This document shows, one piece after another, positions 2,646 to 59,667 of a stretch of DNA of 64,000 nucleotides. The stretch's first letter is position 1, and each line of letters begins with the position of its first letter. Under the pieces are notes generated by a model. The model searched no databases, had not been told where the DNA came from, and saw only the letters and a list, made by a program, of their open reading frames with translations. Made by a program: the position numbers and the translations under genes. The stretch is from positions 165,234 to 229,233 of the forward strand of contig JBAZSC010000002.1 of NCBI GenBank assembly GCA_041662665.1, in the 5' to 3' direction. The DNA is from Patescibacteria group bacterium (GTDB taxonomy: Bacteria; Patescibacteriota; JABMPQ01; JAQVVF01).

Positions 2646-3245
2646 ATGATAAAAACTATTATCTTTGATATTGATGGAATGATTATTAAGAGAGAAATGT
2701 ATTTTAGCCAATATTACTCACAAAAATTCAAAGTTCCTATAGAAAAAATGCTTCCATTTTATAATAATAAATTTCAACTTTGTTTAATTGGAAAAGCAGA
2801 TCTAAAAAAAGAAATTGCCAAATATCTAAATCAATGGAAATGGAAAAAATCAGTCGATGATTTTCTCTTACTTTGGTTCAAATACGAAAGCAATCTAGAT
2901 AATAAAGTTTTGGAAAGCATAAAAAAATTGAGAAAGAAAAAGATCAATTGTTATATTGGTACTGACAACGAAAAATATCGTGTCAACTATCTACTTAACA
3001 ATCTGAAATTAGCAAAATATTTTGATGGAATTTTTGCTTCATCCAAAATTGGTTACCAAAAATCACAACAAGAATTTTGGTCACAAGTCTACAAAAGTCT
3101 TAAGCAACCTAACAAATCAGAAATCCTATTTTGGGACGATGATCCAAAAAACGTAAAGTCAGCACAAGATTTTGGCTTCAACGCTAAAGTCTATACTAAC
3201 TTTTCAGATTACGAAAACAAAATAAAATTATTAATTAACATTTAA
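2646..3245 (+). CDS. HAD-superfamily hydrolase
   Basis: The N-terminal motif IIFDIDGMI is HAD motif I (DxDG), and a C-terminal motif WDDDPKNV is also present. Confidence 0.7.
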   Translation: MIKTIIFDIDGMIIKREMYFSQYYSQKFKVPIEKMLPFYNNKFQLCLIGKADLKKEIAKYLNQWKWKKSVDDFLLLWFKYESNLDNKVLESIKKLRKKKINCYIGTDNEKYRVNYLLNNLKLAKYFDGIFASSKIGYQKSQQEFWSQVYKSLKQPNKSEILFWDDDPKNVKSAQDFGFNAKVYTNFSDYENKIKLLINI

Positions 3246-3329
3246 CAACAAAAAACAAAAACATTTTAAAAGTAAATTTTTATTTACTAATTAACAAATA
3301 AAACTAATAAACTAATTAAACTAAATATT

Positions 3330-5021
3330 ATGAACAATAAATTTATTCCAAAATTAAAAATTATTCCGCTAGGCGGATTAGAAGAAATAGGTCGAAATAT
3401 GACCTTAATTGAATATGCAAGAGACATCATCATCATTGATATGGGCTTGCAATTCCCAGAAGAAAACATGCCTGGAATTGATTATATCATTCCAAACATC
3501 GCCTATTTGAAAGGCAAAGAAAATTATATTAGAGGCGTTATTATTACTCATGGTCATTTTGACCATATCGGCGCTATCCCTCACATCATGGATCGCATTG
3601 GCAACCCAACTATTTTTACTGCCAAATTAACAAGGGCAATGATTGAGAAACGCCAGGAAGAATTTGATAAAAAAGAAAAATTATCAATTTATACAATTTC
3701 AGAACAAGACCAAATTCAGCTTGGCCAATTTAAAGTTGAATTTTTTAAAGTCAATCACAACATTCCAGATGGCTATGGAGTAATCGTCCACTCGCCTGTC
3801 GGTACGATCATTCATACTGGCGATTTTAAATTTGATCCAACACCAGTTGGAGACATGCCAGCAAATAAAGAAAAATTAGCCAAAATTGGAAAACAAGGAG
3901 TTCTCGCATTAATGTCAGATAGCACTGGTGCTGAAAATTCAGGTCATTCCATTTCTGAAAAAACGATTATGGAAACATTAAACAAAATTATTTCTGAAGC
4001 AAAAGGCAGAATCATTTTAGCTACTTTTTCATCACTTATTACTCGTATTCAACAAGTTATTTTCATTGCTGAAAAATTAGGCAAAAAAGTTGCAATCGAA
4101 GGTTTTTCTATGAAAACAAATGTTGAAATCTGCAAAAAGCTAGGCTATTTAAAAACTGGCAAGAAAATTCTCGTCAGTACAAAACAAGCTTTGAAATTAC
4201 CAAAAGATAAAATAATTATTTTATGCACTGGTGCTCAAGGTGAAGAAGCAGCTGTTCTAATGCGTATTGCCAATCAAGATCACAAAGAAATAGAAATCGA
4301 AAAAGGAGATTCTGTTATTTTTTCATCATCAGTAATTCCAGGAAATGAAAGAAGTGTTCAAAGATTAAAAGATAATTTGACTAGATTAGGTGCTGATATT
4401 TTTCATTACAAAATGATGGATGTCCATTCCAGCGGTCATGGTTTTATTGATGATCTAACAGAAATGATTACCTTAACCAAACCAAAATATTTTATTCCAG
4501 TTCATGGAAATCATTTCTTATTAAAATTACATGGCGATATTGCAAGAAACACAAATATCGTCAAAGATCCAAATATCTTTGTTTGCGACAATGGCCAAAT
4601 CATGGAATATCAAAAACAAGGCGAAACAGTTGTCGGCGAATTAACAAAACGAAAAGTTCCAGCAGGACATGTTATGGTTGATGGACTTGGCGTCGGCGAT
4701 GTTTCAAATGTTGTTTTAAGAGATCGTCAAGCTATGGCAGAAGATGGCATGTTCGTGATAATCTTAACTATGGATGGAAATACTGGAAAATTAGTCAGCG
4801 ATCCAGATATCATCTCTCGTGGCTTTGTCTTTATGAAAGAATCAAAAAGATTAATTGGCCAGACCAAAGAAAGAATCAAAAAAATCTTAATTGATCATGA
4901 TCCAAAGACTTCATCAAATGATACTTATATCAGAAATAAAGTCCGCGATCAAATTGGTCAATTCTTATTTACCAGAACTCAAAGAAGACCAATGATTCTT
5001 CCAGTCATCATCGAAGTTTAA
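3330..5021 (+). CDS. rnj: Ribonuclease J (metallo-beta-lactamase/beta-CASP RNase)
   Basis: The product has the HxHxDH-type motif ITHGHFDHIGAIP, the N-terminal motif IIPLGGLEEIGRNM, and a 563-aa length typical of RNase J. Confidence 0.85.
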   Translation: MNNKFIPKLKIIPLGGLEEIGRNMTLIEYARDIIIIDMGLQFPEENMPGIDYIIPNIAYLKGKENYIRGVIITHGHFDHIGAIPHIMDRIGNPTIFTAKLTRAMIEKRQEEFDKKEKLSIYTISEQDQIQLGQFKVEFFKVNHNIPDGYGVIVHSPVGTIIHTGDFKFDPTPVGDMPANKEKLAKIGKQGVLALMSDSTGAENSGHSISEKTIMETLNKIISEAKGRIILATFSSLITRIQQVIFIAEKLGKKVAIEGFSMKTNVEICKKLGYLKTGKKILVSTKQALKLPKDKIIILCTGAQGEEAAVLMRIANQDHKEIEIEKGDSVIFSSSVIPGNERSVQRLKDNLTRLGADIFHYKMMDVHSSGHGFIDDLTEMITLTKPKYFIPVHGNHFLLKLHGDIARNTNIVKDPNIFVCDNGQIMEYQKQGETVVGELTKRKVPAGHVMVDGLGVGDVSNVVLRDRQAMAEDGMFVIILTMDGNTGKLVSDPDIISRGFVFMKESKRLIGQTKERIKKILIDHDPKTSSNDTYIRNKVRDQIGQFLFTRTQRRPMILPVIIEV

Positions 5022-5022
5022 A

Positions 5023-5067
5023 CCACAGATTTGCACAGATACTGAACAGATTTAACACAGATACTAA
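5023..5067. repeat. CACAGAT tandem array (reverse orientation of the ATCTGTG family)
   Basis: The sequence is ccacagatttgcacagatactgaacagatttaacacagatact. Confidence 0.7.
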
Positions 5068-5091
5068 AACAAATTAAACAAAAATAAAATT

Positions 5092-5520
5092 ATGTTTTTA
5101 CACAAAGAGTTAAGTTGGAAAATTATTGGTATTTGTATGAAAATTCAAAATGAATATGGTTCAAATCATAATGAAAGAATTTATCATTCATTACTAATAG
5201 AGCAATTTACTCTTCAAAAAATCAATTTTTTATCCAAACCCAAAATTCCAGTTTTATCTAAACAAACAGGCAAAAAAATTGGCCTATATGAACCTGATTT
5301 TCTCATCGAAAAATTAATAATCTTAGAAATCAAAGCCAAACCTTTTAATTTTAAAAAAGATGAAACTCAATTACAAGAATATCTGAATACAACGCCTTAT
5401 GAAATTGGTTATTTAGTAAATTTTGGTTTTCAAAATAAATTATATTTCAAAAGAATTATCTGTACCAATAATCTCAAAAATTTCCTAAGCCTTCCTAAAA
5501 AATTATATGCGTCTCAATAA
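5092..5520 (+). CDS. GxxExxY family protein (PD-(D/E)XK-like)
   Basis: The N-terminus GICMKIQNEYGSNHNERIYHSLL matches the GxxExxY signature. The gene is flanked by inverted arrays of the ATCTGTG repeat (5023-5067 and 5533-5582). Confidence 0.6.
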   Translation: MFLHKELSWKIIGICMKIQNEYGSNHNERIYHSLLIEQFTLQKINFLSKPKIPVLSKQTGKKIGLYEPDFLIEKLIILEIKAKPFNFKKDETQLQEYLNTTPYEIGYLVNFGFQNKLYFKRIICTNNLKNFLSLPKKLYASQ

Positions 5521-5532
5521 ATCAGTAGTAAA

Positions 5533-5582
5533 GTATCTGTGTCTCTGTGAACATCTGTCTCGTATCTGTGTAAGATCTGTGG
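5533..5582. repeat. ATCTGTG tandem array (period about 10-11 bp)
   Basis: The sequence is gtatctgtgtctctgtgaacatctgtctcgtatctgtgtaagatctgtgg. Confidence 0.7.
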
Positions 5583-5607
5583 TAAACTAATATCTAACAA
5601 TAAAAAT

Positions 5608-6597
5608 ATGTCTAAAGTTATTTTCTCAGGTATTCAACCAAGTGGAGAATTACACATTGGCAATTATTTCGGTGCAATTAAAAACTGGTTAGAATTACAA
5701 AAACAAGAAAGTCTTTGCTATTTCTGCGTTGTTGATTTACATGCCATTACTATCGATTATGATCCAAAACAATTTCAAGACAAAATTCTAGACACTATAG
5801 CAACTTATCTTGCGTGCGGAATTGATCCAGAAAAATCAATTATTTTTGTTCAATCAAAAGTCAAAGAACATGCTGAATTAGCCTGGCTTTTAAACACTAT
5901 TACTCCTATTTCCGAGCTTGAAAGAATGACTCAATACAAAGATAAGCGCGCCCAACATATCAAAAACGTTAATATTGGCCTTCTAGATTATCCAGTTTTA
6001 CAAGCCGCCGATATATTGCTTTATAATACAAACATCGTTCCAGTGGGCCAGGATCAAAAACAGCATATTGAATTAGCAAGAACTATTGCCAATAAATTCA
6101 ATACTAAATTTGGAAAGACTCTTACAATTCCAGAACATTTCATTCCAGAAGTTGGCGCTAAAATTATGTCGCTTCTTGAGCCAACCAAAAAAATGTCCAA
6201 ATCCCATAATCCAAAATCATATATTTCTTTATCTGATTCCAAAGAACATATTGAGAAAAAAATAATGTCAGCAGTTACTGATTCTGATAATAAAATATTT
6301 TTTGATCCAGAAAAAAAGCCAGCTATTTCAAATCTATTATCAATCTATCATTTAGCAACTGGCTGGACTTTGCAACAAATTCAAGATAAATATAAAGATT
6401 CAACTAGCTATGCCCAATTTAAAAAAGATTTGGCAGAAAATATAATAAAATTATTGCAACCGATTCAAGATAAAAAACAAGAATTATTAAAAGACGAAAC
6501 TAAGCTTTTAGAAATCTTAGATAATAGCACCAAAAAAGCTCAAACCGAAGCTACAAAAACAATGCTTATTGTTAAGAAAAAAATGGGTTTAATTTAA
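5608..6597 (+). CDS. trpS: Tryptophanyl-tRNA synthetase
   Basis: The class I HIGH motif (GELHIGNYFGA) and the KMSKS motif are present. The length is 329 aa. Confidence 0.9.
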   Translation: MSKVIFSGIQPSGELHIGNYFGAIKNWLELQKQESLCYFCVVDLHAITIDYDPKQFQDKILDTIATYLACGIDPEKSIIFVQSKVKEHAELAWLLNTITPISELERMTQYKDKRAQHIKNVNIGLLDYPVLQAADILLYNTNIVPVGQDQKQHIELARTIANKFNTKFGKTLTIPEHFIPEVGAKIMSLLEPTKKMSKSHNPKSYISLSDSKEHIEKKIMSAVTDSDNKIFFDPEKKPAISNLLSIYHLATGWTLQQIQDKYKDSTSYAQFKKDLAENIIKLLQPIQDKKQELLKDETKLLEILDNSTKKAQTEATKTMLIVKKKMGLI

Positions 6598-6632
6598 ACT
6601 ATTTTAAAGTTTAATAATTAAAATAAAAAAAT

Positions 6633-6770
6633 ATGCCAACATGCAAAGATTGCAAAAATTTCGCTCCAAATCCAACTGATCCAAACAAAGGTGAATGCTA
6701 TGGACACGAAGTTGATGCAAACATGGACTCAGAAAAATGCCCAGCAAAAAGCTTTCAAGCAAAAGAATAA
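6633..6770 (+). CDS. Small Cys-rich protein (45 aa, CxxC...C...C, zinc-ribbon-like), absent from the ORF track because it is under 60 aa
   Basis: The ATG at 6633 opens a frame encoding MPTCKDCKNFAPNPTDPNKGECYGHEVDANMDSEKCPAKSFQAKE. An intrinsic terminator follows directly. Confidence 0.4.
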   Translation: MPTCKDCKNFAPNPTDPNKGECYGHEVDANMDSEKCPAKSFQAKE

Positions 6771-6785
6771 TTGATTTTAAAGAAA

Positions 6786-6818
6786 CAAAAACGAGACCAT
6801 TTCAGCCTCGTTTTTTTA
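6786..6818 (+). terminator. Rho-independent terminator downstream of trpS/small ORF
   Basis: A hairpin AAAAACGAG-N11-CTCGTTTTT is followed by a T-run. Confidence 0.5.
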
Positions 6819-6821
6819 TTT

Positions 6822-6870
6822 ATCTGTGTCTCTGTGCTTTATCTGTAAAGTATCTGTATAAAATCTGTGG
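6822..6870. repeat. ATCTGTG tandem array
   Basis: The sequence is atctgtgtctctgtgctttatctgtaaagtatctgtataaaatctgtgg. Confidence 0.7.
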
Positions 6871-6871
6871 C

Positions 6872-8725
6872 CTAGCCTAATATTTCAAATCTCTCTCCAC
6901 CAATAGAAATTTTTTCTGCTCTCAAAACAAAATCTTCCAAAATTTCATGCACTAACTTATCACATTTCTCTTTTATCTCTTGATATTCTTCATCAGATTT
7001 ATTAATGCCAACTTCCATTCCACAAGCTGCATAAAATTTTATTTTGGGTTCAGTTCCAGATGGTCTAACAACTACTCTGATTGTCTTTTCTTTATTTAAA
7101 TAAAATATTAATGCATTATCTGGAAAACCAATATATTTTCCAACAACTTTATTAGTTTTTGGATCAATAAATTTTTTTTCTAATTGATCTAAAACAGTAA
7201 ACACTTCTAATCCAGAAACTTTAGTTGGCAATTTCGCTCTAAATTTATCCATTATTTTTTTCATTTTATCCATTCCATCCATACCCTTGTAAAAAACAGC
7301 TTGCAACAATTCGCGATAATAACCATATTTTTTCTTTATAATTTCTAATTGTTGATACAAAGTCTTCCCTTCTTTTTTTAACAAACCAGCATATTCACAA
7401 ATTAATAATGCTGCAATTGCACCATCTTTATCTCTCGCATAATCTCCATACAAATATCCATGGCTTTCTTCAGCCCCAAATAAAAATTTATTGCCTTTTA
7501 ATCTTGTATCAATTGCATTGCCAATATATTTAAAACCAACTGGCAAATCTGTTATAACTTTACAACCATTATCTTCGGCAATTTTTGTCAGCAAGTCAGT
7601 AGTTACAACAGTTTTAATCATCATTGTTTTTTTCAAATCTGTTTTTTTACTCAACATTCTTGTTATATAATCCAAAAGCAAAACTCCAATTTGATTGCCA
7701 TTCAAAAATATATATTTTTCTTTTTTTATTGTTTCTGGACTAACAACGCCAATTCTATCAGCATCAGGATCAGCAGCAACCAACACATCAACCTTATTTT
7801 TTTTAGCCTGTTTTGTCCCAAGATCTAAAGAAATTGGAACTTCAGGATTTGGAATTTGTTTTGCAACACTTTTAAAATCTGGATCAAAAGGCATTTGGCT
7901 TTTTACAGTTTCAACTTTTTTGAAACCAACATTTTTCAAAACTGGCAAAAAAGAAGTACTCGCACAACCATTCAAAGGCGTAAATAAAATATGAACGTCT
8001 CGATAATTACCTAATGACAATTTACTTACAGTATCAACAAAAGCTTGATCAATATCTTTACCTAAAATTTTAATCTTTCCAGATTCTTTTGCTTTATTAA
8101 AATCAATTGTTTTTATTTTTTTAACAGCCATGACTTTATTAATAATATTTTTGTCATGAGGAGGAACAATTTGACCGCCATTATCAAAATATACTTTAAT
8201 TCCATTATCAGAAGGAGGATTATGGCTTGCACTAATCATTGCTCCACCGACTGCTTTCATTTTCCTAATTGTAAAAGATATCTGCGGAGTTGATCTAACA
8301 CCCTCATAAAAATATACTTTAAAATTATTTCCAGCAAAAACTGAAGCTGCTGTCTTTGCAAACAATTCAGAATTATGACGAACATCATAAGTCACTACAA
8401 TTCCTTTTTTTAACGCTTTATTCCCAAAAAATTTAATTAGATAATCAGCAAAACCTTGTGCAGATTCAGAAATTGTTCGAACATTAATTCTATTTGATCC
8501 AACTCCCATCATTCCCCTTCTTCCTCCAGTTCCAAAAGGAATAACCTGAAAAAAAGCGTTATTCAAATCATCAACTTTTTCATTATTAATCATCTCAATA
8601 ATTTCATCCCAAAATTTTTCACATTCATCACTATTCAACCAAATTTTTATATTTTTAACAGCCGAATCCACCAAACCTTTTTTCTTTAAACTAAGGAGTT
8701 TAGCATTTATTTCATTTATTTTCAT
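6872..8725 (-). CDS. Phosphoglucomutase/phosphomannomutase (alpha-D-phosphohexomutase family)
   Basis: The active-site serine loop ISASHNPPSDNGIKV is present, and the 617-aa length is compatible with PgcA-type enzymes. Confidence 0.85.
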   Translation of the reverse strand: MKINEINAKLLSLKKKGLVDSAVKNIKIWLNSDECEKFWDEIIEMINNEKVDDLNNAFFQVIPFGTGGRRGMMGVGSNRINVRTISESAQGFADYLIKFFGNKALKKGIVVTYDVRHNSELFAKTAASVFAGNNFKVYFYEGVRSTPQISFTIRKMKAVGGAMISASHNPPSDNGIKVYFDNGGQIVPPHDKNIINKVMAVKKIKTIDFNKAKESGKIKILGKDIDQAFVDTVSKLSLGNYRDVHILFTPLNGCASTSFLPVLKNVGFKKVETVKSQMPFDPDFKSVAKQIPNPEVPISLDLGTKQAKKNKVDVLVAADPDADRIGVVSPETIKKEKYIFLNGNQIGVLLLDYITRMLSKKTDLKKTMMIKTVVTTDLLTKIAEDNGCKVITDLPVGFKYIGNAIDTRLKGNKFLFGAEESHGYLYGDYARDKDGAIAALLICEYAGLLKKEGKTLYQQLEIIKKKYGYYRELLQAVFYKGMDGMDKMKKIMDKFRAKLPTKVSGLEVFTVLDQLEKKFIDPKTNKVVGKYIGFPDNALIFYLNKEKTIRVVVRPSGTEPKIKFYAACGMEVGINKSDEEYQEIKEKCDKLVHEILEDFVLRAEKISIGGERFEILG

Positions 8726-17903: not shown

Positions 17904-17982
17904 AAATCCTAAAAAATAGGGTTACCATTATTATACTATAATTAAACATTTACAACAATAAAAAATCGTAGATAAACTACGA

Positions 17983-19023
17983 TTAACCTCCATAAAAACA
18001 TAAAGGATCAGGACCTTGCAACATATTGCCATTATAAGCAGAAAATCTTTGTGCTAAACATCCTCCTTTACATGAATCCAACAAAACGCATTTTCTACAT
18101 TTACCTTTTAATCTTTTATAACCATAACTTTGGAATCTTCTAAATATATCAACCATTGGATGTTTTAGCCAAAAATATTCCAAATTATTTTCCAAAATAT
18201 TACCAAATGCCGGATATTTCATTGCCGAACAATATGTCACATCGCCATTTGCTCTAATCAAAATCTTTTCTTGACCAATATTACAACTTCTAATTGGAAA
18301 ACTTTCATCATAACTATATCGTCTATCAATGTTATGTCCTAATATCAAATCAAAACGTTGAGGTATCAAATAAGAGAAAAATCTTTGCGCGACTCTAAAT
18401 TGTTCTTGATTCAAAACTAATTCTGGATGATTTGCGCAACTGCCTTGAACAACCAATCTCAATAAGTGCCAGTTCTTTACTCCCAGATCTCTCAACAAAT
18501 CATACATCAAACCCAATTCAAGATAATTCACTGCCATTACAGTAGTATGCACTTCAACTTTTAATCCTCTTGCAACAGCTAAGGCAATACTTGCCATCAA
18601 CAAATCAAATGATCCTTCTAGTCCTGTCACTTTTTCATGCGTTTCTTTCATCCCATGCAAACTAAAAACTATTCTGTCATCTTTATGAGAATAACGTCTC
18701 CAAAAATCAAAGAAAGCTTCTTTCAAAGAAAACATTTTTCCTTTTTCATTTTTATAAATAGCGCTCGTCTGCAATCTTACAGAAAAACCAAATCGCCATG
18801 CATAAAGCATTAAATCAATACAATCTTTTCGCATCAAAAGCTCGCCTCCGCTAATCGTAAAAATACTTGCCCCAAGCCATTTTGCTTGTCTCAAAATATC
18901 CATTATTTCTGCCTGCGATAATTCTCTTTCAAAAGGCAAACCAGCATTTGAAGAACAATGAAGGCAACTTAAAGCACATTGATTTGTGATCTCAATTGAA
19001 ATTTCTTTCAATAGCCTTGGCAT
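17983..19023 (-). CDS. Radical SAM enzyme with C-terminal SPASM domain
   Basis: The CALSCLHCSS (Cx3Cx2C) motif is present. A C-terminal Cys cluster (CNIGQ...YCSAMKY...CRKCVLLDSCKGGCLA) is typical of SPASM auxiliary Fe-S domains. A strong RBS (AAAGGAGGGAGA) precedes the gene. Confidence 0.8.
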   Translation of the reverse strand: MPRLLKEISIEITNQCALSCLHCSSNAGLPFERELSQAEIMDILRQAKWLGASIFTISGGELLMRKDCIDLMLYAWRFGFSVRLQTSAIYKNEKGKMFSLKEAFFDFWRRYSHKDDRIVFSLHGMKETHEKVTGLEGSFDLLMASIALAVARGLKVEVHTTVMAVNYLELGLMYDLLRDLGVKNWHLLRLVVQGSCANHPELVLNQEQFRVAQRFFSYLIPQRFDLILGHNIDRRYSYDESFPIRSCNIGQEKILIRANGDVTYCSAMKYPAFGNILENNLEYFWLKHPMVDIFRRFQSYGYKRLKGKCRKCVLLDSCKGGCLAQRFSAYNGNMLQGPDPLCFYGG

Positions 19024-19056
19024 TTCTCTTCTCCCTCCTTTGTCCCATCAACTTTG

Positions 19057-19082
19057 TCCACCGAAGCTTTAGCGCAGGTGGA
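19057..19082. repeat. Palindromic element variant TCCACC-GAAGCTTTAGCGCAG-GTGGA (intergenic, in the 5' region of the rSAM gene)
   Basis: Its arms and loop are homologous to those of the rpsF copies. Confidence 0.6.
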
Positions 19083-19162
19083 AGCGTAAACGAAGATGGA
19101 CTTGTTTTCAAAGAACATTTTCAATCAACAATATCATATTAATTTGATACTTACAATAAAAA

Positions 19163-19192
19163 ATAGAGGCACAAAATCTTGTGCCCCTAGAT
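19163..19192 (-). terminator. Intrinsic terminator hairpin, identical copy of the one at 20881..20910
   Basis: On the minus strand, a GGGGCACAA-GATT-TTGTGCC hairpin is followed by CTCTATTTTTT. Confidence 0.6.
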
Positions 19193-19237: not shown

Positions 19238-20794
19238 TCATTTCACCCCAATTGCAAAATACTGCGTCTTCGTTGGATATTTAGTGAAATACTTTACAAT
19301 GAATTTTCTGTTTTTCTTTATTACTTTAGCATCAGTAAATACTGTAGATATATTCTGCCAAGAACCACCTTTTTTCTTGTATTTCAAATAAAGATTTGAT
19401 GCTGTTGCTGATTTATTTTTCTTTAAAAATTTCTTTAATGCTTTCTTAGTATATTTGAATGTTACTTTAATTTTATATTTCTGTGATAACTTTTTTGCTT
19501 TGTATTTATATAGATTAGTCTTTAATTTCCAATTGCTTAAGAATGTCTTATTTGGATATTTGCTTAATTTATTCCATTGCATCCAATAAGCGCTGTTCTT
19601 TGTTAATTTTGTTGGAAGCTTGGTGAAATTGATAACTAGATTTTGGCCTGAAATTGTTTGTTGATTTAGAGCTGGCATCAACGTAACTTTGTCACCATTA
19701 ATCAAATTGTTCTCCTCTAAAAGCCTATCGTATTCTTTTTGCTCTTCAGCGCTTAAAGTGTATTTCCAGACCTTTCCGACATAACTTTCATCAGAATTAC
19801 TATCACCTCCAGCATAAATTGAACCATCTGAGACTTGAATCAAAGAATAAACATCAGACCCAGCCATTATTCCAGTAAAATCTGACCAAGAACCATTCGA
19901 ATATTTAGAAACTTTAGCATAAACACCATTACCACCTGCATAAATCGAACCATCTAAAGCCTGAGATAGAGAATAAACATGGGTCATATCCAGCGTACCA
20001 GTGATATCTGTCCAAGAATTATTTGAATATCTATAGACTTTAGCATAATTAGTAGAATAAAAACCACCTGAATAGCCACCAGCATAAATTGAACCATCTA
20101 TCGCCTGAAACAAAGATCGAACGTTAGACATATTTAATGTTCCAGTAACATCTGACCAAGAACCATTTGAATATTTAAAAACTTTACCATAATCATCACT
20201 ACCATCATAATAATGTCCTCCAGCATAAATTGAACTATCTGAAGCTTGAATCAAAGAAGTTACAACAGACATATTTGAAATTTCAGAGATACTGATCCAA
20301 GAACCATTTGAATATTTAAAAATTCTATCATCATAATTAAAACCATTATAGACATATCCACCAGCATAAATCGAACCATCTGAGGCTTGAAGTAAAGTAG
20401 TAACAAAAGACATATCCGATAATCCAGAAACATCAGTCCAAGAACCATTCGAATATTTATAGACTTTAGCAAGATAATCGCTAGCTAAAACATATCCGCC
20501 AACATAAATCGAACCGTCTGAGGCTTGAAGTAGAGAAGCTACATTAGACATATTTAATGTTCCAGTAATATCTGACCAAGAACCATTTGAATATTTAGAA
20601 ACTCTACCATAAAAATGGCTACCATCATCATAATTCCCACCGGCATAAATCGAACCATCTGAAGCATAAACCAAAGAATAAACTGTAGATATACTCAATG
20701 TCCCAGTAATATCTCCCCATTCAGCACTAGCAATTCCGCCTAATCCAAACAATAACCCCACGCAAAACAAACTTGTTAATAAAAACTTTCTCAT
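19238..20794 (-). CDS. Secreted beta-propeller repeat protein with the shared Lys-rich C-terminal module
   Basis: A signal peptide is followed by about eight repeats of roughly 45 aa (YSNGSW.D.TG...SLLQASDGSIYAGG). The C-terminal segment of about 150 aa is homologous to the C-termini of four other secreted proteins in this window. Confidence 0.7.
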   Translation of the reverse strand: MRKFLLTSLFCVGLLFGLGGIASAEWGDITGTLSISTVYSLVYASDGSIYAGGNYDDGSHFYGRVSKYSNGSWSDITGTLNMSNVASLLQASDGSIYVGGYVLASDYLAKVYKYSNGSWTDVSGLSDMSFVTTLLQASDGSIYAGGYVYNGFNYDDRIFKYSNGSWISISEISNMSVVTSLIQASDSSIYAGGHYYDGSDDYGKVFKYSNGSWSDVTGTLNMSNVRSLFQAIDGSIYAGGYSGGFYSTNYAKVYRYSNNSWTDITGTLDMTHVYSLSQALDGSIYAGGNGVYAKVSKYSNGSWSDFTGIMAGSDVYSLIQVSDGSIYAGGDSNSDESYVGKVWKYTLSAEEQKEYDRLLEENNLINGDKVTLMPALNQQTISGQNLVINFTKLPTKLTKNSAYWMQWNKLSKYPNKTFLSNWKLKTNLYKYKAKKLSQKYKIKVTFKYTKKALKKFLKKNKSATASNLYLKYKKKGGSWQNISTVFTDAKVIKKNRKFIVKYFTKYPTKTQYFAIGVK

Positions 20795-20880
20795 AATTTT
20801 TTGATTTTATTTTTATATAATAAATTTAGTTAATAATATTATACCACAATCAAAGAAGAAGAAGAAGTTATCCACAAAAA

Positions 20881-20910
20881 AATAGAGGCACAAAATCTTG
20901 TGCCCCTAAT
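20881..20910 (-). terminator. Intrinsic terminator downstream of rpoC
   Basis: This is the same 30-nt hairpin plus T-run as at 19163..19192. Confidence 0.6.
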
Positions 20911-24814: not shown

Positions 24815-25174
24815 CTAAAAATCAGTCCCATTTACATCATTTTCATTATAATCAATTGTTATTTCTTCGCCAAAATAAATATTTCTAACAGCAATAGTAT
24901 CTTTAAATTGTCCTAGACTTTTTGTATTTGGATTTTCTGAATGATTTATAAACCTTGCATTATCAGTATCCAAATAAACATAATCTTCACCATTATCAAC
25001 AGCGTATGTGTCAAAAAATTCTTCTGCATTTTTCGGTATATCTTTTTTGTTTACTTTTATATCAATGACAGAATTAAAAACCCAAACAGATTGACCTTTT
25101 TTAATTTCTTGATCAGCAATCAAACCAATCCCTTTCCCATTTATTTCTTTTAACCTTGTCTTAACTACTAACAT
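24815..25174 (-). CDS. Minimal SET-domain protein (putative protein-lysine methyltransferase)
   Basis: The 119-aa product has GKGIGL (GxG), RFINHSENPN (NHSxxPN) and GEEITIDY (GEELxxDY) in canonical order. It lies between rpoB and rpoC on the same strand. Confidence 0.75.
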   Translation of the reverse strand: MLVVKTRLKEINGKGIGLIADQEIKKGQSVWVFNSVIDIKVNKKDIPKNAEEFFDTYAVDNGEDYVYLDTDNARFINHSENPNTKSLGQFKDTIAVRNIYFGEEITIDYNENDVNGTDF

Positions 25175-25330: not shown

Positions 25331-28300
25331 CTATTTACGTTCGTACTTTTTTTCTTCAGTTTCAAGAATATTTCCATTTTTATCCAAAATTTCAACATTC
25401 AAAGCTAAGCTTTTTAATTCTTTAACTAAAACGCTGAATGATTCTGGAACATTTGGCTGTCTGATTGGTTCACCCTTAATAATCGCTTCATAAGTTTTTG
25501 AACGTCCAATAACATCATCTGATTTTATTGTTAACAATTCCTGTAACACATGAGAAGCGCCATAAGCCTCAATTGCCCAAACTTCCATTTCACCAAATCT
25601 TTGTCCACCAAATTGTGCTTTACCGCCTAATGGCTGTTGAGTAACTAATGAGTACGGCCCGATTGATCTTTGATGGATCTTATCTTCAACTAAGTGATAA
25701 AGTTTCAAGATATACATCACACCAACTGTTGTTTTTTCCGTAAATGCATTACCTGTTCTACCATCATAAAGTTGAACTTTGCCATTTTCTGGCCAGTTTG
25801 CTCTTTTTAATTCAGATTTAATTGTTTCTTCTTTTACACCATCCAAAACTGGAGTTGCAACTTTATAGCCTAATAATTTTGCCGCCATGCCTAAGTGAAC
25901 TTCCAAAATCTGACCTTGATTCATACGAGAAGGCACGCCTAATGGATTCAAAATAATATCAACTGTTCTTCCATCTGGCAAATATGGCATATCTTCCTGT
26001 GGAACAATCTTTGAGATAACACCTTTATTACCATGACGTCCAGCTAATTTATCGCCAACTTGAATTTTTCGAAGTTGTGCGACAGAAACTTGAATCGTCT
26101 TGATAACGCCAGTTGGCAATTTATCGCCTTTTTCTCTAGAAAATATTTTAACATCAACAACCTTACCATGTTCGCCATGTTGCAAATATAATGAAGTGTC
26201 TTTTACATCTCTAGCTTTTTCACCAAAGATCGCTCTTAATAATCGCTCTTCTGCTGTTAATTCAGTTTCACCTTTTGGTGTAATTTTACCTACCAAAATA
26301 TCACCTGAAGTAACTTGAGCTCCGACTCTAACAATTCCTTCTTCATCCAAATCTTTTAGTTTTTCTTCACCAACATTTGGAATATCGCGAGTAACTAATT
26401 CTGAACCTAATTTTGTATCACGAACATCAATCGAAAAATCCTCAATATGAATTGAGCTATAAACATCTTCGCGAACTAGTCTATCAGAAATCAACATCGC
26501 GTCTTCAAAATTTCCACCTTGCCATGCCATGAATGCAACTACAACATTTTTTCCTAAAGCTAATTCGCCTTTATCAGTTGAAGATCCATCAGCAATAATC
26601 TGACCCTTTTTTACTTTCTCACCAACTGAAACGATTGGTCTTTGATCAATACAAGTTGAAGTATTTGATCTTAAGAAATTTAATAATTTATATTCTCTAA
26701 TATTTTTATTAGCTTCCAATACTTTTATTCTTTTTCCAGATACTTCAATGATCTCTCCATCTTTTTTACAAACAATAACTACACCTGAATCTTTAGCAGC
26801 TCTCTCTTCACAACCAGTACCTACAATTGGTGAATCAGGATTAATACATGGCACAGCCTGACGTTGCATGTTTGAACCCATCAAAGCACGATTAGCATCA
26901 TCATGTTCCAAAAATGGAATCAAAGCTGTAGTAATAGATACAATTTGTTTTGGAGAAACATCCATATATTCGATTCTGCCTGTTGCTTCCATTGATGGCT
27001 CGCCTGCAACTCTAACTTCTGCTCTTTTATCAACAAAATAGCCTTTTTCATCAATTAAAATTGTTGCTGGAGCTGTCACATGTTTTTCTTCCTCAATTGC
27101 ATCTAGATATTCAATTTCATCAGTAACTCTTGATCTAATTTGAACTACTTTCAAACCAGCATTTTTAATTTTATTGATATCTTTTTTATCAAGAACTTTG
27201 TCAGCTGGAATAATCACTCTTCTTTTTTCATCTAGGATTCCAGATTTATAAGAAATCTCGCCGATTGCCTTTTCTGCTCTTTCAATTGGAATTTCTCTTA
27301 AAATCTTTCTATAAGGAGTTTCAATAAAACCATATTCATTAATTCTTGCATATGAAGAAAGATGGCCTACCAAACCAATGTTTGGACCTTCAGGAGTCGA
27401 AATAGGACAAATTCTGCCATAGTGAGTTCTGTGTACATCACGTACATCAAAACCAGCTCTTTCACGAGACAAACCTCCAGGACCCATTGCTGATAATCTT
27501 CTCTTATGTTCTAACTCGGATAATGGATTTGTTTGATCCATAAATTGAGAAAGTTGAGAAGACATGAAAAATTCTCGAATTGAAGAAATAACTGGTCTAG
27601 CATTAATCAATTGAGCTGGAGTAGAAGTATTAATATCCAAAGTACTCATTCTATCTCTAATGATTCTTTCCATTCTCATCAAACCAACTCTCATTTTATT
27701 TTGGACCAATTCACCAATCGCTCTAACTCTTCTATTTCCTAAATGATCAATATCATCAGGATTGCCTTGATTAATATTTAATTTAATTAATTCTTTTATA
27801 ACATTAACAAGATCTTCTTTTCTTAAAACTCTATTTTGCTTGTTAATAATAATTTTTTCACCTAATCTTTTGTTCATTTTGAAACGTCCAACTTTGCCAA
27901 AATCATATCTTTCAAAATTAAAAAACATTGCTTCAATCAATGATCTTGCATTATCCGCAGTTGCTAAATCTCCAGGTCTAATTCTTTTATATACTTCAAT
28001 AAAACCTTCAGCTTGATTTTTTGCAATATCTTTTTCTAATGTATTTTTGATAAATTTTCGATCAGGCAAAGTATCAACATCCTTGAATTGAGCCAAAATT
28101 TCAGAATCTGTGGAAAACCCAAAAGCCCTTAACAATGACGTTACAGGTACTTTTCTTTTGCGATCGATTTTTGCATAAATAACACTTTTTGAGTCAGTTT
28201 CAATTTCTATCCAAGCGCCTCTGTTTGGAATAATTTTTGCGCCAAATAATTTTTCGCCTTTTGTTAATTCAGCAGTAAAAAATACGCCAGGAGATCTAAT

Positions 28301-28696
28301 CAATTGAGAAACAACTACTCTTTCAACACCATTGATAATAAATGTGCCTCGATCAGTCATCAATGGAAATTCGCCTAAATATACTTCTTGTTCTTTTATT
28401 TCACCAGTTTGTTTATTAACTAATTGAACTTTGCAACGAACTGAAGCTTCATAAGTTGCATTTCTTGATTTTGCTGCAACTTCATCAACTTTTGGTTCAT
28501 CAATTACATAATCAACAAAACTTAATTCTAGATTTTTTTCAGTAAAATCTTTGATTGGAGAAATTTCATCAAACAATTCTCTCAAACCTTCTTTAAAAAA
28601 CCAATCATAAGAATCAGTTTGAACTCTGATTAAATCAGGAAGTTCAATAACATCATGCAATTTAGTAAAAAATTTTCTTTTTTGCTTTTGAGGCAT
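25331..28696 (-). CDS. rpoB: DNA-directed RNA polymerase subunit beta
   Basis: Conserved beta-subunit regions are present throughout. The ORF-track start at 28741 uses TTG and adds 15 hydrophobic residues. The ATG at 28696 ([10 protein letters not shown]...) is the more plausible start. Confidence 0.95.
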
Positions 28697-28744
28697 ACTA
28701 TAAAAAATTAATATATAATAACAAATACTAATCATTTGCAATTA

Positions 28745-43973: not shown

Positions 43974-44528
43974 TTACTTTTGCCTTATTTTAACATCATA
44001 CAAAATTTCTTCCAGCCTCTTCAAATTTCTTTTAGCTTCATCGAATTTTACTCTCAATTTTCCAGTCAGATCAAATTTGATTAACTCGCCAATAATATCA
44101 TCAACAGCTTGCTTATAATCAGAAATTTTTTCAGCCTCGCCTTTTGTTACCAAAATTACAGCCATTCTTACCATCTCACCAGTCAAATCACAAATTCCAG
44201 AAATCATTGTTTCAAAACCAAATTTCAATTCTGATTTAAAATCAATATCACCACTATTTAAATATTCAAAAAACATTTTTGCTTCCACAAATTCTTCCGC
44301 AGCTTCATAATATGCACCAACTCCTGAAGAATTACCCAAAGCAATCAATTTCTTTTCAGCATCTGTCAAAACTTCTTCCGCTTTTTTCAAATCATCGCGA
44401 TGCATTAAAAAAATCGCTTGTTTTGACATTTTTAAAACAACTCTTGCCTCACCAATAATTTTTTCGCGCATCAAACTATGCTCTTGATTTTCGACTAATA
44501 ATCTTTCAAATAATTCTTTGTTCAGCAT
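43974..44528 (-). CDS. Hypothetical all-helical protein, possibly translin-family
   Basis: The motif ISGICDLTGEMVRMAVI resembles the translin/TRAX GxxDLTGELMR signature. The call is weak. Confidence 0.35.
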   Translation of the reverse strand: MLNKELFERLLVENQEHSLMREKIIGEARVVLKMSKQAIFLMHRDDLKKAEEVLTDAEKKLIALGNSSGVGAYYEAAEEFVEAKMFFEYLNSGDIDFKSELKFGFETMISGICDLTGEMVRMAVILVTKGEAEKISDYKQAVDDIIGELIKFDLTGKLRVKFDEAKRNLKRLEEILYDVKIRQK

Positions 44529-44632: not shown

Positions 44633-45220
44633 TTAATATCTCGAATATTCACATCCGCAGTAACGCTGTCTATAAATTCCATTTAATTTACACAACTCAA
44701 TACTTCTTTTATATAATCCGCTAAAATCTTGTTCCAAAAATTTCACTCCATATTTCTTTTCTAATTCAAGACCGATTCTATTTATCATCATTGTATTCTT
44801 GTATGGCGAAATAGACAAGGTCGTTCCAAACATTTCAAAGCCATTCAACATCGCAAATTCTGCTGTTTTTTCTAATCTGAATTTAATGCAAGCCTCGCAT
44901 CTTTTTCCGCCTTCCTTTTCTTTTTCTAAACCAACAACTTTTTTTTGCCAATTCTTAACATCATTTTTCGGAACAGCGAATTTTAGTTTATCAATTTTAG
45001 CATTATCAATTTTACTTATTTTACTAATTTTACTAACATTATTAATTTTACCAATTTTACTCGCAAGTTTATTCAAATTCTCTAATCTTAAATCATATTC
45101 GCTTTTTGGATAAATATTTGGATTATAAAAATAGCCAGTAATTTCATAATCTGGTTTTATTTTTTCTAAAACTGCACTCGCACATGGGCCGCAGCAAATA
45201 TGTAATAATAATCTTGTCAT
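44633..45220 (-). CDS. queH: Epoxyqueuosine reductase QueH (DUF208)
   Basis: The motifs LLLHICCGPCAS...YFYNPNIYPKSEY and the C-terminal CGCEYS are present. An in-frame tandem repeat encodes NNVSKISKISKIDNAKIDKL. Confidence 0.8.
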   Translation of the reverse strand: MTRLLLHICCGPCASAVLEKIKPDYEITGYFYNPNIYPKSEYDLRLENLNKLASKIGKINNVSKISKISKIDNAKIDKLKFAVPKNDVKNWQKKVVGLEKEKEGGKRCEACIKFRLEKTAEFAMLNGFEMFGTTLSISPYKNTMMINRIGLELEKKYGVKFLEQDFSGLYKRSIELCKLNGIYRQRYCGCEYSRY

Positions 45221-59436: not shown

Positions 59437-59667
59437 TCAGCCGAGTTGTCCGAAATTGGAATGAATCAAAGGATTAAAACGCGAACCGTACTCACGTTCA
59501 AATTGCATTTCAACATCATTCAAATCCTTTCGATTTTTGCGATACACGTAAATGAGCTTTTCATGATCAGTCATCTCATCCCATGTCTTCGTCTTCATCT
59601 TCTCTCTTCCTCCTTTTCCGCAGGCACAGACACTACAAGGAGTCGTACAATTGCAGACCATACTCAT
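59437..59667 (-). CDS. Small Cys-rich hypothetical protein (N-terminal CNCTTPCSVCAC)
   Basis: The RBS AGGAGGGAGGA precedes the ATG. The ORF has higher GC than its surroundings and is preceded by the conserved leader motif/hairpin. Confidence 0.45.
   Translation of the reverse strand: MSMVCNCTTPCSVCACGKGGREKMKTKTWDEMTDHEKLIYVYRKNRKDLNDVEMQFEREYGSRFNPLIHSNFGQLG

Follow-up and report, generated by a model that had tools for sequence, protein, structure and literature searches.

The 64,000-nucleotide stretch analysed here, which we call the window, lies on a 258-kb contig of a Patescibacteria group bacterium (JBAZSC010000002.1, assembly GCA_041662665.1) and sets the scope of the genomic context described below. 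It carries on its minus strand, at 17983-19023, an ATG-started open reading frame (ORF) of 346 amino acids encoding a radical S-adenosylmethionine (rSAM) enzyme with a SPASM domain. On balance, we favour the view that this gene is a stand-alone and functional copy belonging to a rare family of three-cluster rSAM/SPASM enzymes of DPANN archaea and of bacteria of the candidate phyla radiation (CPR), for which a DUF2284 protein is the usual partner and whose substrate is probably not a peptide.

An intact radical-SAM/SPASM enzyme

An original prediction, made from the DNA letters alone, had already described the gene product as an rSAM/SPASM enzyme, and this description is borne out by domain models and cysteine motifs. 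The protein scores above the cutoffs of the Pfam models for Radical_SAM (PF04055, 55.4 bits versus 29.5) and SPASM (PF13186, 32.8 versus 21.5), as well as of the TIGR04085 SPASM model (46.5 versus 27). The rSAM cluster motif has the CX3CX2C form (C15-x3-C19-x2-C22), the GGE/D motif is conserved in the family alignment, and the seven-cysteine SPASM pattern is complete (C247-x12-G260-x4-C265, C309-x2-C312-x5-C318-x3-C322 and C342). In the family alignment of 19 sequences (A1), which includes the window protein itself, all seven SPASM cysteines and the cluster cysteines are invariant. The AlphaFold2 model (pLDDT 85) adopts the SPASM-rSAM fold, with no additional domain.

The gene is preceded by a Shine-Dalgarno sequence, AGGAGG, read from the sequence at 19034-19039 (minus strand), 10 nt 5' of the ATG, and GGAGG is retained ahead of the gene in its closest relative, locus L013. 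The two orthologs share 84-85% amino acid identity, with a dS of 0.53, a pS of 0.38 and a dN/dS of 0.18. Together, the motifs and the substitution pattern indicate that the ORF is a genuine, intact rSAM/SPASM enzyme gene under purifying selection. An identical protein is on record as 'MAG: radical SAM protein [Patescibacteria group bacterium]', from a 258-kb contig.

A very small family shared by DPANN archaea and CPR bacteria

A search with the single sequence returned 18 relatives at 42-49% identity, in addition to the 85% identical one of L013, followed by a second tier at around 30% identity. The profile search, in which the window protein scores 517 bits, gave the same 19 clusters at 471-580 bits, with the next match at 283 bits. 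These 19 clusters were found among 5.8 billion proteins, and an exhaustive HMMER search over 1.84 billion representatives gave only three sequences above 370 bits and then one at 285. Given this gap in scores, we consider the family to be real and very small; scans of GTDB genomes and of metagenomes added two and eight loci, respectively. The window protein presents the signature motifs of the family, GHN[IL]D[RK]R, HLLRLVxQG, GCxAQR and GPDPxC.

Members that carry a taxonomic name belong to Patescibacteria, Paceibacterota, Woesearchaeota or to an unclassified 'archaeon', so that the family, as judged from the sequences recovered, is confined to DPANN archaea and CPR bacteria (Patescibacteria), and none of its members has been characterized. 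The neighbour-joining tree is star-like, with the bacterial copies that lack an adjacent partner gene falling in at least three separate groups, a topology consistent with several transfers between the two domains.

DUF2284 as the usual partner

In six distinct loci (L001, L006, L007, L011, L020 and L021) the gene located 3' of the rSAM gene encodes a DUF2284 protein (PF10050, about 200 amino acids), and the two genes overlap by 16-28 nt. Two further rSAM/DUF2284 pairs, P0003/P0059 and P0015/P0146, were deduced from contigs of identical size. The paired loci are archaeal wherever a call can be made: L007 carries MCM, eIF and Topo VI genes, and L001 and L006 are labelled 'Woesearchaeota' or 'archaeon'. 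No adjacent DUF2284 gene is found in the bacterial copies (the window, L004, L010 and the group L012/L018/L022) nor in the Woesearchaeote L009, and L013 and L016 are too short for adjacency to be judged. The order rSAM followed by an overlapping DUF2284 gene is the typical arrangement and probably also the ancestral one.

The DUF2284 proteins have nine invariant cysteines, including a ferredoxin-like C-x2-C-x2-C-x7-C-x2-P pattern, and their AlphaFold2 model is of high confidence (pLDDT 94). A natural fusion exists in the wider clade, P0265 (779 amino acids), in which the rSAM enzyme (residues 9-354) precedes DUF2284 (residues 420-569), in the same order as in the gene pairs. DUF2284 proteins of this subtype form more than 300 clusters, compared with the 19 of the rSAM family; they occur in CPR bacteria and one stands alone in the CPR contig L026, and therefore DUF2284 does not depend on the rSAM enzyme. 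The fusion, the tight coupling and this independence favour a role for DUF2284 as a subunit or redox partner of the enzyme rather than as its substrate. Among the full texts searched, only two papers name DUF2284, neither of which deals with its function, and nothing was found on COG5423 or on SPASM proteins in Patescibacteria. A relationship between DUF2284 and the UDG-superfamily protein of an operon described below was considered and rejected, with an hhalign probability of 6%.

In the mechanism that we propose, the N-terminal [4Fe-4S] cluster would cleave SAM reductively to give a 5'-deoxyadenosyl radical, which would abstract a hydrogen atom from a substrate encoded away from the rSAM gene, with the two SPASM clusters relaying electrons. 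Where present, DUF2284 would serve as an Fe-S auxiliary or electron-transfer subunit. In the CPR copies, including that of the window, the rSAM gene stands alone, inserted between housekeeping genes (here downstream of rpoC), and the role of the missing neighbour would here be filled by a general reductant or by a DUF2284 protein encoded at an unlinked site. The original prediction had noted that no precursor or partner gene is found nearby, and this is confirmed within the 64 kb by both Pfam scans and tblastn: the scanned ORFs of at least 90 amino acids were housekeeping or unrelated, no DUF2284 gene was detected by tblastn, and among queries with DUF2284, UDG, HD-like, MazG, NDT, Q_salvage, HhH-GPD, QueA and Bro-N proteins the only gene to emerge was queH, 26 kb away. 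It is possible that, in this genome, the protein is an orphan enzyme acting in trans, which was one of the options first put forward.

Comparison with known rSAM/SPASM enzymes

The window protein reaches none of the curated NCBIfam subfamily (equivalog) cutoffs. The highest score was that of TIGR04053, the model of an uncharacterized rSAM/SPASM family (109.4 bits in two stretches, cutoff 395). Searches of NCBIfam, Pfam, PADLOC and PHROGs gave matches at the superfamily level only, so an assignment to a known subfamily was rejected: the PHROGs matches read 'radical SAM' and nothing more, and the PADLOC viperin model pVip scored 39-40 bits over the generic rSAM core, with no kinase gene next to the rSAM gene. 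The nearest solved structures, by sequence and by Foldseek, are SkfB, SuiB, PqqE, BlsE, anSME, viperin and MoaA, at 13-21% identity.

SPASM rSAM enzymes are often peptide maturases, and the window enzyme could be one that acts in trans on a peptide synthesized ribosomally and modified after translation (RiPP) whose precursor is encoded elsewhere, for instance by the 45-residue, four-cysteine ORF at 6633-6770. We regard this as unlikely. The architecture is indeed shared with SkfB, SuiB, PqqE and the CteB-type sacti- and ranthipeptide synthases, which also combine the rSAM core with a seven-cysteine SPASM domain and two auxiliary clusters. In addition, SkfB, SuiB and PqqE are the best matches in the PDB in both sequence and fold (E-value of 9e-18 for SkfB by sequence and 2e-17 by Foldseek; TM-score of 0.72 for SuiB), the GDL-peptide maturase (99.4 bits, cutoff 591.75) and MftC (92.6, cutoff 265) are among the top partial NCBIfam matches, one distant fusion bears a PqqD domain, and the window does contain real small genes with cysteines. 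However, the identity to these maturases is only 18-21%, and the RiPP equivalog cutoffs are missed by 4- to 9-fold, as in PqqE (81.6 bits, cutoff 381.35), nif11-3 (81.4, cutoff 725), StsB (69, cutoff 625) and SkfB (41.8, cutoff 300). Most peptide maturases carry an N-terminal RiPP recognition element (RRE), which, like any PqqD-like N-terminal domain, is absent from the window enzyme, since its rSAM core begins at residue 8 and the protein has two Pfam domains only. The window proteins that were scanned include no separate PqqD-like partner either. None of 15 family loci has a precursor gene close by: an all-against-all BLAST of the small ORFs around them revealed no conserved same-strand peptide, only antisense shadows of coding sequence. 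The conserved neighbour of the family is instead DUF2284, a folded 200-residue protein of the Fe-S type. The expectation of a peptide maturase, with which the original prediction had started, is thus weakened.

The cysteine-rich small ORFs of the window were considered as trans substrates and rejected, as 36 related loci contain no homolog of any of them. The ORF at 6633-6770 (plus strand) has its own terminator, is annotated at NCBI as the hypothetical protein WC663_04140 and gives a weak match to the small Fe-S beta/gamma subunits of benzylsuccinate synthase (E-value 0.007). A second one, at 59437-59667 (minus strand), encodes 76 amino acids with a Shine-Dalgarno sequence and a cysteine-rich N-terminus (MSMVCNCTTPCSVCACG); NCBI calls a 53-residue version of it, and it sits in the only stretch of raised G+C content in the window (0.38, at 56-60 kb).

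The substrate might also be a protein, namely DUF2284 itself, on which the enzyme would install a thioether or another modification, acting in the present genome on an unlinked copy. SPASM enzymes that mature proteins have precedents, such as anSME and QhpD, and in favour of such a role are the tight translational coupling in the six archaeal loci, the abundance of cysteines in DUF2284 and its presence in CPR genomes. Still, proteins of this DUF2284 subtype outnumber the rSAM family by more than 15 to 1 and occur alone, on large contigs and in L026, and thus do not need the enzyme as a maturase. Furthermore, subunits are commonly fused in the manner of P0265, whereas enzymes are seldom fused to the proteins on which they act, and the CxxCxxC...CP pattern resembles a set of cluster ligands. 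We therefore think it improbable that DUF2284 is the substrate.

It is very unlikely that the protein is a tetrapyrrole or other known cofactor enzyme, of the AhbC/AhbD/NirJ type or like PqqE, MftC or MoaA. Together with TIGR04053, the heme-pathway rSAM/SPASM models are the curated models that score highest (109-88 bits), NirJ2, AhbD, NirJ and AhbC being among the best partial matches (88-103 bits); these enzymes are of similar length and have an architecture of the small-molecule type, and JGI labels some of the distant matches 'heme b synthase'. However, the scores fall far below the cutoffs, which are 395-650 for the whole group: the scores of the five models AhbD, AhbC, NirJ, NirJ1 and NirJ2, in descending order and not in that of the names, were 103.5, 100, 90.2, 88.2 and 76.1 bits against cutoffs of 500-650 (NirJ2 at 103 and AhbD at 100, each with a cutoff of 500). 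The family motifs (HCSS, LRLVxQGR, GCxAQR and GPDPxC) are unlike those of AhbD-like sequences, and neither the window nor any related locus yielded a tetrapyrrole, PQQ or mycofactocin gene.

The same minimal, stand-alone architecture is seen in anaerobic sulfatase-maturating enzymes (anSME), which are about 350-370 amino acids long, lack an RRE, carry three [4Fe-4S] sites and work in trans, their target being encoded at another site. The fold of our model also resembles theirs (Foldseek TM-score of about 0.69 to anSMEcpe), but the anSME model TIGR03942 gives only 42.9 bits, over residues 108-333, against a cutoff of 349, and neither the scanned window proteins nor the related loci included a sulfatase, which makes this identity extremely improbable. 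The classification by hidden Markov models that the original prediction had called for thus speaks against an anSME; an assignment to that class would have removed the peptide-maturase idea.

The upstream small ORF and palindrome

The original prediction had pointed to a small frame just upstream of the enzyme gene as a possible substrate peptide, and to a palindromic element within it. The frame does exist on the minus strand at 19008-19124, encodes 36 amino acids from the ATG at 19118 (38 from a TTG at 19124), has two cysteines and overlaps the start of the rSAM gene by 16 nt, but it lacks a Shine-Dalgarno sequence and is judged non-coding; the end coordinate originally given for the feature, 19100, cuts it short. 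It is recorded by no gene caller and missing from a collection of 15 billion proteins, and none of the 36 related loci contains a homolog. In L013, whose enzyme is 85% identical, the ATG is replaced by ACG, an 18-nt deletion removes the first cysteine, and a second deletion of 16 nt shifts the frame, leaving a TTG-started ORF of 27 amino acids with no cysteine. The N-terminal similarity that persists between the two loci is explained by the conservation of probable promoter or leader DNA in that region. Thus, although the ORF lies on the same strand, overlaps the start of the enzyme gene and contains two cysteines, there is almost no likelihood that its 36-residue product is a substrate translated from the same mRNA.

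The palindrome, an inverted repeat TCCACC-N14-GGTGGA (6+14+6, with no strand), is located exactly where it had been reported, at 19057-19082, but it is no commoner than expected by chance. Perfect 6-bp inverted repeats with loops of 3-20 nt occur at about 2.8 per 214 bp across the window, the intergenic region has three of them, and this count is reached by 15% of the shuffles of the region. It was not picked up by a repeat search with the length threshold set at 8, and the 5'-leader RNA folds no better than shuffled sequences (z = +0.57). In L013, the 18-nt deletion also removes its left arm and the right arm is mutated. A regulatory role was rejected on the basis of the background frequency, the fold score and this loss of the arm. 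Both the small ORF and the palindrome are, by these comparisons, chance features with no part in enzyme function.

Nucleotide-related neighbourhoods and the possible substrate

We come back to the three-cluster enzyme with a probable non-peptide substrate. Among its structural matches are BlsE (cytosylglucuronate decarboxylase; E-value of 5e-11 by sequence and 4.5e-13 by Foldseek), MoaA and viperin, in which a fold with a SPASM- or twitch-like C-terminal domain handles nucleotides. This fits the nucleotide-metabolism genes that neighbour the clade, although the identity is only 14-17% and the likeness rests on sequence and fold matches.

In L009, a queH gene lies 55 bp upstream of the rSAM gene on the same strand, with queA nearby, and a MazG-like gene lies downstream (Pfam E-value 0.007). 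In L012, L018 and L022 a Nuc_deoxyrib_tr gene is divergently oriented upstream of the rSAM gene, and in L010 the order is tyrS-rSAM-pheS-pheT. The solitary DUF2284 of the CPR contig L026 stands beside two HhH-GPD glycosylases, Q_salvage, Nuc_deoxyrib_tr and ITPase genes. The window itself encodes a QueH (epoxyqueuosine reductase) at 44633-45220 of the minus strand, with 199.6 bits; neither TGT nor QueA was detected there. No queuine-lyase model was among the best 25 of 54 NCBIfam matches of the rSAM protein, and neither QueK nor QueT was seen in the window.

Some further features of these loci may be recorded. The L009 locus (2872-8466 of the Woesearchaeota contig PWVO01000196.1) has genes for a bacterial-type QueH, QueA, a PP-loop ATPase and a B12-binding rSAM protein around the family rSAM gene, and Bro-N domain genes are found near the rSAM gene in L006, L009 and L011. 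The window queH gene adjoins genes for a translin-family protein and a NUDIX hydrolase; besides queH itself, this site covers 43974-44528 of the minus strand.

The wider clade shares the motifs HCSS, LR[FL]VP[QH]GRG, GCLAQ[RK] and DPxC. In the tier at around 30% identity, the rSAM gene forms an operon with genes for a UDG-superfamily protein and an HD-like protein of 460-516 amino acids, next to a divergent XRE-type helix-turn-helix gene, and we consider this arrangement a candidate DNA-modification or defence module. The operon is located at 2823-6366 of L024 and at 4312-8221 of L025, is adjoined by DNA methyltransferases and transposases, and is not in PADLOC. Natural fusions with a C-terminal MazG domain also occur (P0225 and P0235-P0239, 563-588 amino acids); many other long relatives in the wider clade are tandem rSAM duplications.

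Phage relatives of the clade are located in replication and nucleotide modules. In the IMG/VR contig L028 (2-7394), an rSAM/SPASM relative of 27% identity lies between gp32 and RecA genes, beside a PolA-UDG fusion and an amino-acid:DNA transferase (ADDT), the class of enzyme that starts thymidine hypermodification (PMC8989533). This neighbourhood suggests that thymidine hypermodification includes an rSAM step not described so far. A precedent for an rSAM enzyme acting on groups appended to DNA is M6 gp53, a phage isomerase of thymidine hypermodification (PMC8989533). However, gp53 is SPL-like, with its CX3CX2C motif at residue 125 and no SPASM domain, and is related to the clade at the superfamily level only; neither an ADDT nor a kinase gene neighbours the rSAM gene of the window.

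Taken together, the neighbourhoods of the family and of the wider clade weakly indicate that the substrate is a nucleoside, a nucleotide or a nucleic-acid-linked group, and not a ribosomal peptide. A more specific proposal is that the family, with DUF2284 in archaea, constitutes a new radical enzyme that serves nucleoside or nucleic-acid metabolism and has passed between CPR and DPANN organisms, for example in the salvage or tailoring of queuosine or other 7-deazapurine precursors. The 7-deazapurine proposal is made because of the queH-rSAM pair and queA in L009, the tyrS-rSAM-pheST order in L010, the Q_salvage and HhH-GPD genes of L026, the QueH of the window and the UDG, HD, MazG and ADDT genes of the wider clade. 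In this specific form it is a doubtful proposal, which we put forward very tentatively.

Several points weigh against the reading favoured here. Its basis is sequence and predicted structures, and the role given to DUF2284 rests on sequence context; moreover, it is possible that an unlinked partner or precursor is encoded beyond the 64 kb. The best structural matches are RiPP maturases, as described above. The link to nucleotides is circumstantial and depends on a handful of loci, and genes of this kind are in any case abundant in CPR, DPANN and phage genomes. Several of the supporting relatives are only 24-31% identical to the window protein and by score no closer than heme-synthase-like rSAM enzymes, the MazG call in L009 is below the Pfam cutoff (17.1 versus 22), and the window QueH is encoded 26 kb from the rSAM gene.

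Transcription unit and neighbouring genes

The G+C content of the window is about 31%, and the rSAM gene is found in the order S6, SSB, YchF, EF-P, RecA, RodZ-like, FtsK, rSAM, a secreted beta-propeller repeat protein, RpoC, a SET-domain protein and a large ORF (25331-28741), which from its size and position is presumably RpoB. The SET-domain protein, of 119 amino acids, is encoded at 24815-25174 (minus strand), between rpoC and this ORF. The terminator scan identified two intrinsic terminators on the minus strand, that of the gene upstream of the rSAM gene at 19158-19189 (hairpin 19189-19164, with an 11-bp stem, a 4-nt loop and a T-run) and one directly after the rSAM stop codon at 17964-17984 (8-bp stem, 5-nt loop and the tail TTTTATTGTT), beyond which ftsK follows on the 3' side. 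With terminators on both sides, the rSAM gene forms a separate transcription unit, which from this arrangement is monocistronic and set among housekeeping genes.

Upstream of the gene there is a conserved non-coding block of 46 nt at 19093-19138 (minus strand; TATGATATTGTTGATTGAAAATGTTCTTTGAAAACAAGTCCATCTT), about 91% identical to L013. It is more conserved between the two loci than the synonymous sites of the rSAM gene and covers the first codons of the small ORF. This block probably holds the promoter and 5'-leader signals of the rSAM gene; a scan for consensus promoters called no site in it.

The terminator hairpin and T-run upstream of the rSAM gene are present in two exact 32-nt copies, at 19158-19189 and, after rpoC, at 20877-20908, which flank the gene for the secreted beta-propeller repeat protein (19238-20794, minus strand). 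L013 lacks this gene, and there the rSAM gene comes after rpoC and just one copy of the hairpin. From this comparison, the repeat-protein gene has the appearance of a cassette that was gained or lost at the terminator of rpoC. Its product has 518 amino acids, with a signal peptide and about eight tandem repeats of around 45 residues (KYSNGSWSDITGTLNMS.V.SL.QASDGSIYAGG), and its matches to Reg_prop and other beta-propeller models are for the most part weak; its exact sequence is missing from the 15-billion-protein collection. The repeat protein was considered as a substrate of the rSAM enzyme and rejected, given the terminator between the two genes and its absence from L013.

Implications for CPR and DPANN organisms

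The family is extremely rare, crosses the boundary between bacteria and archaea and comes with an Fe-S partner that has not been studied. If a protein subunit, and not a peptide, is what accompanies the enzyme, attention would move from RiPP mining to a two-component radical enzyme. Since the genomes of CPR and DPANN organisms are minimal, a three-cluster radical enzyme that is retained and kept under selection is probably needed by them. Should the substrate be a nucleobase or nucleoside, such as a queuosine precursor, the enzyme would fill a gap in the salvage of modified bases by these symbionts, as a non-orthologous salvage or tailoring enzyme that would let organisms without de novo purine synthesis feed TGT, QueA and QueH.

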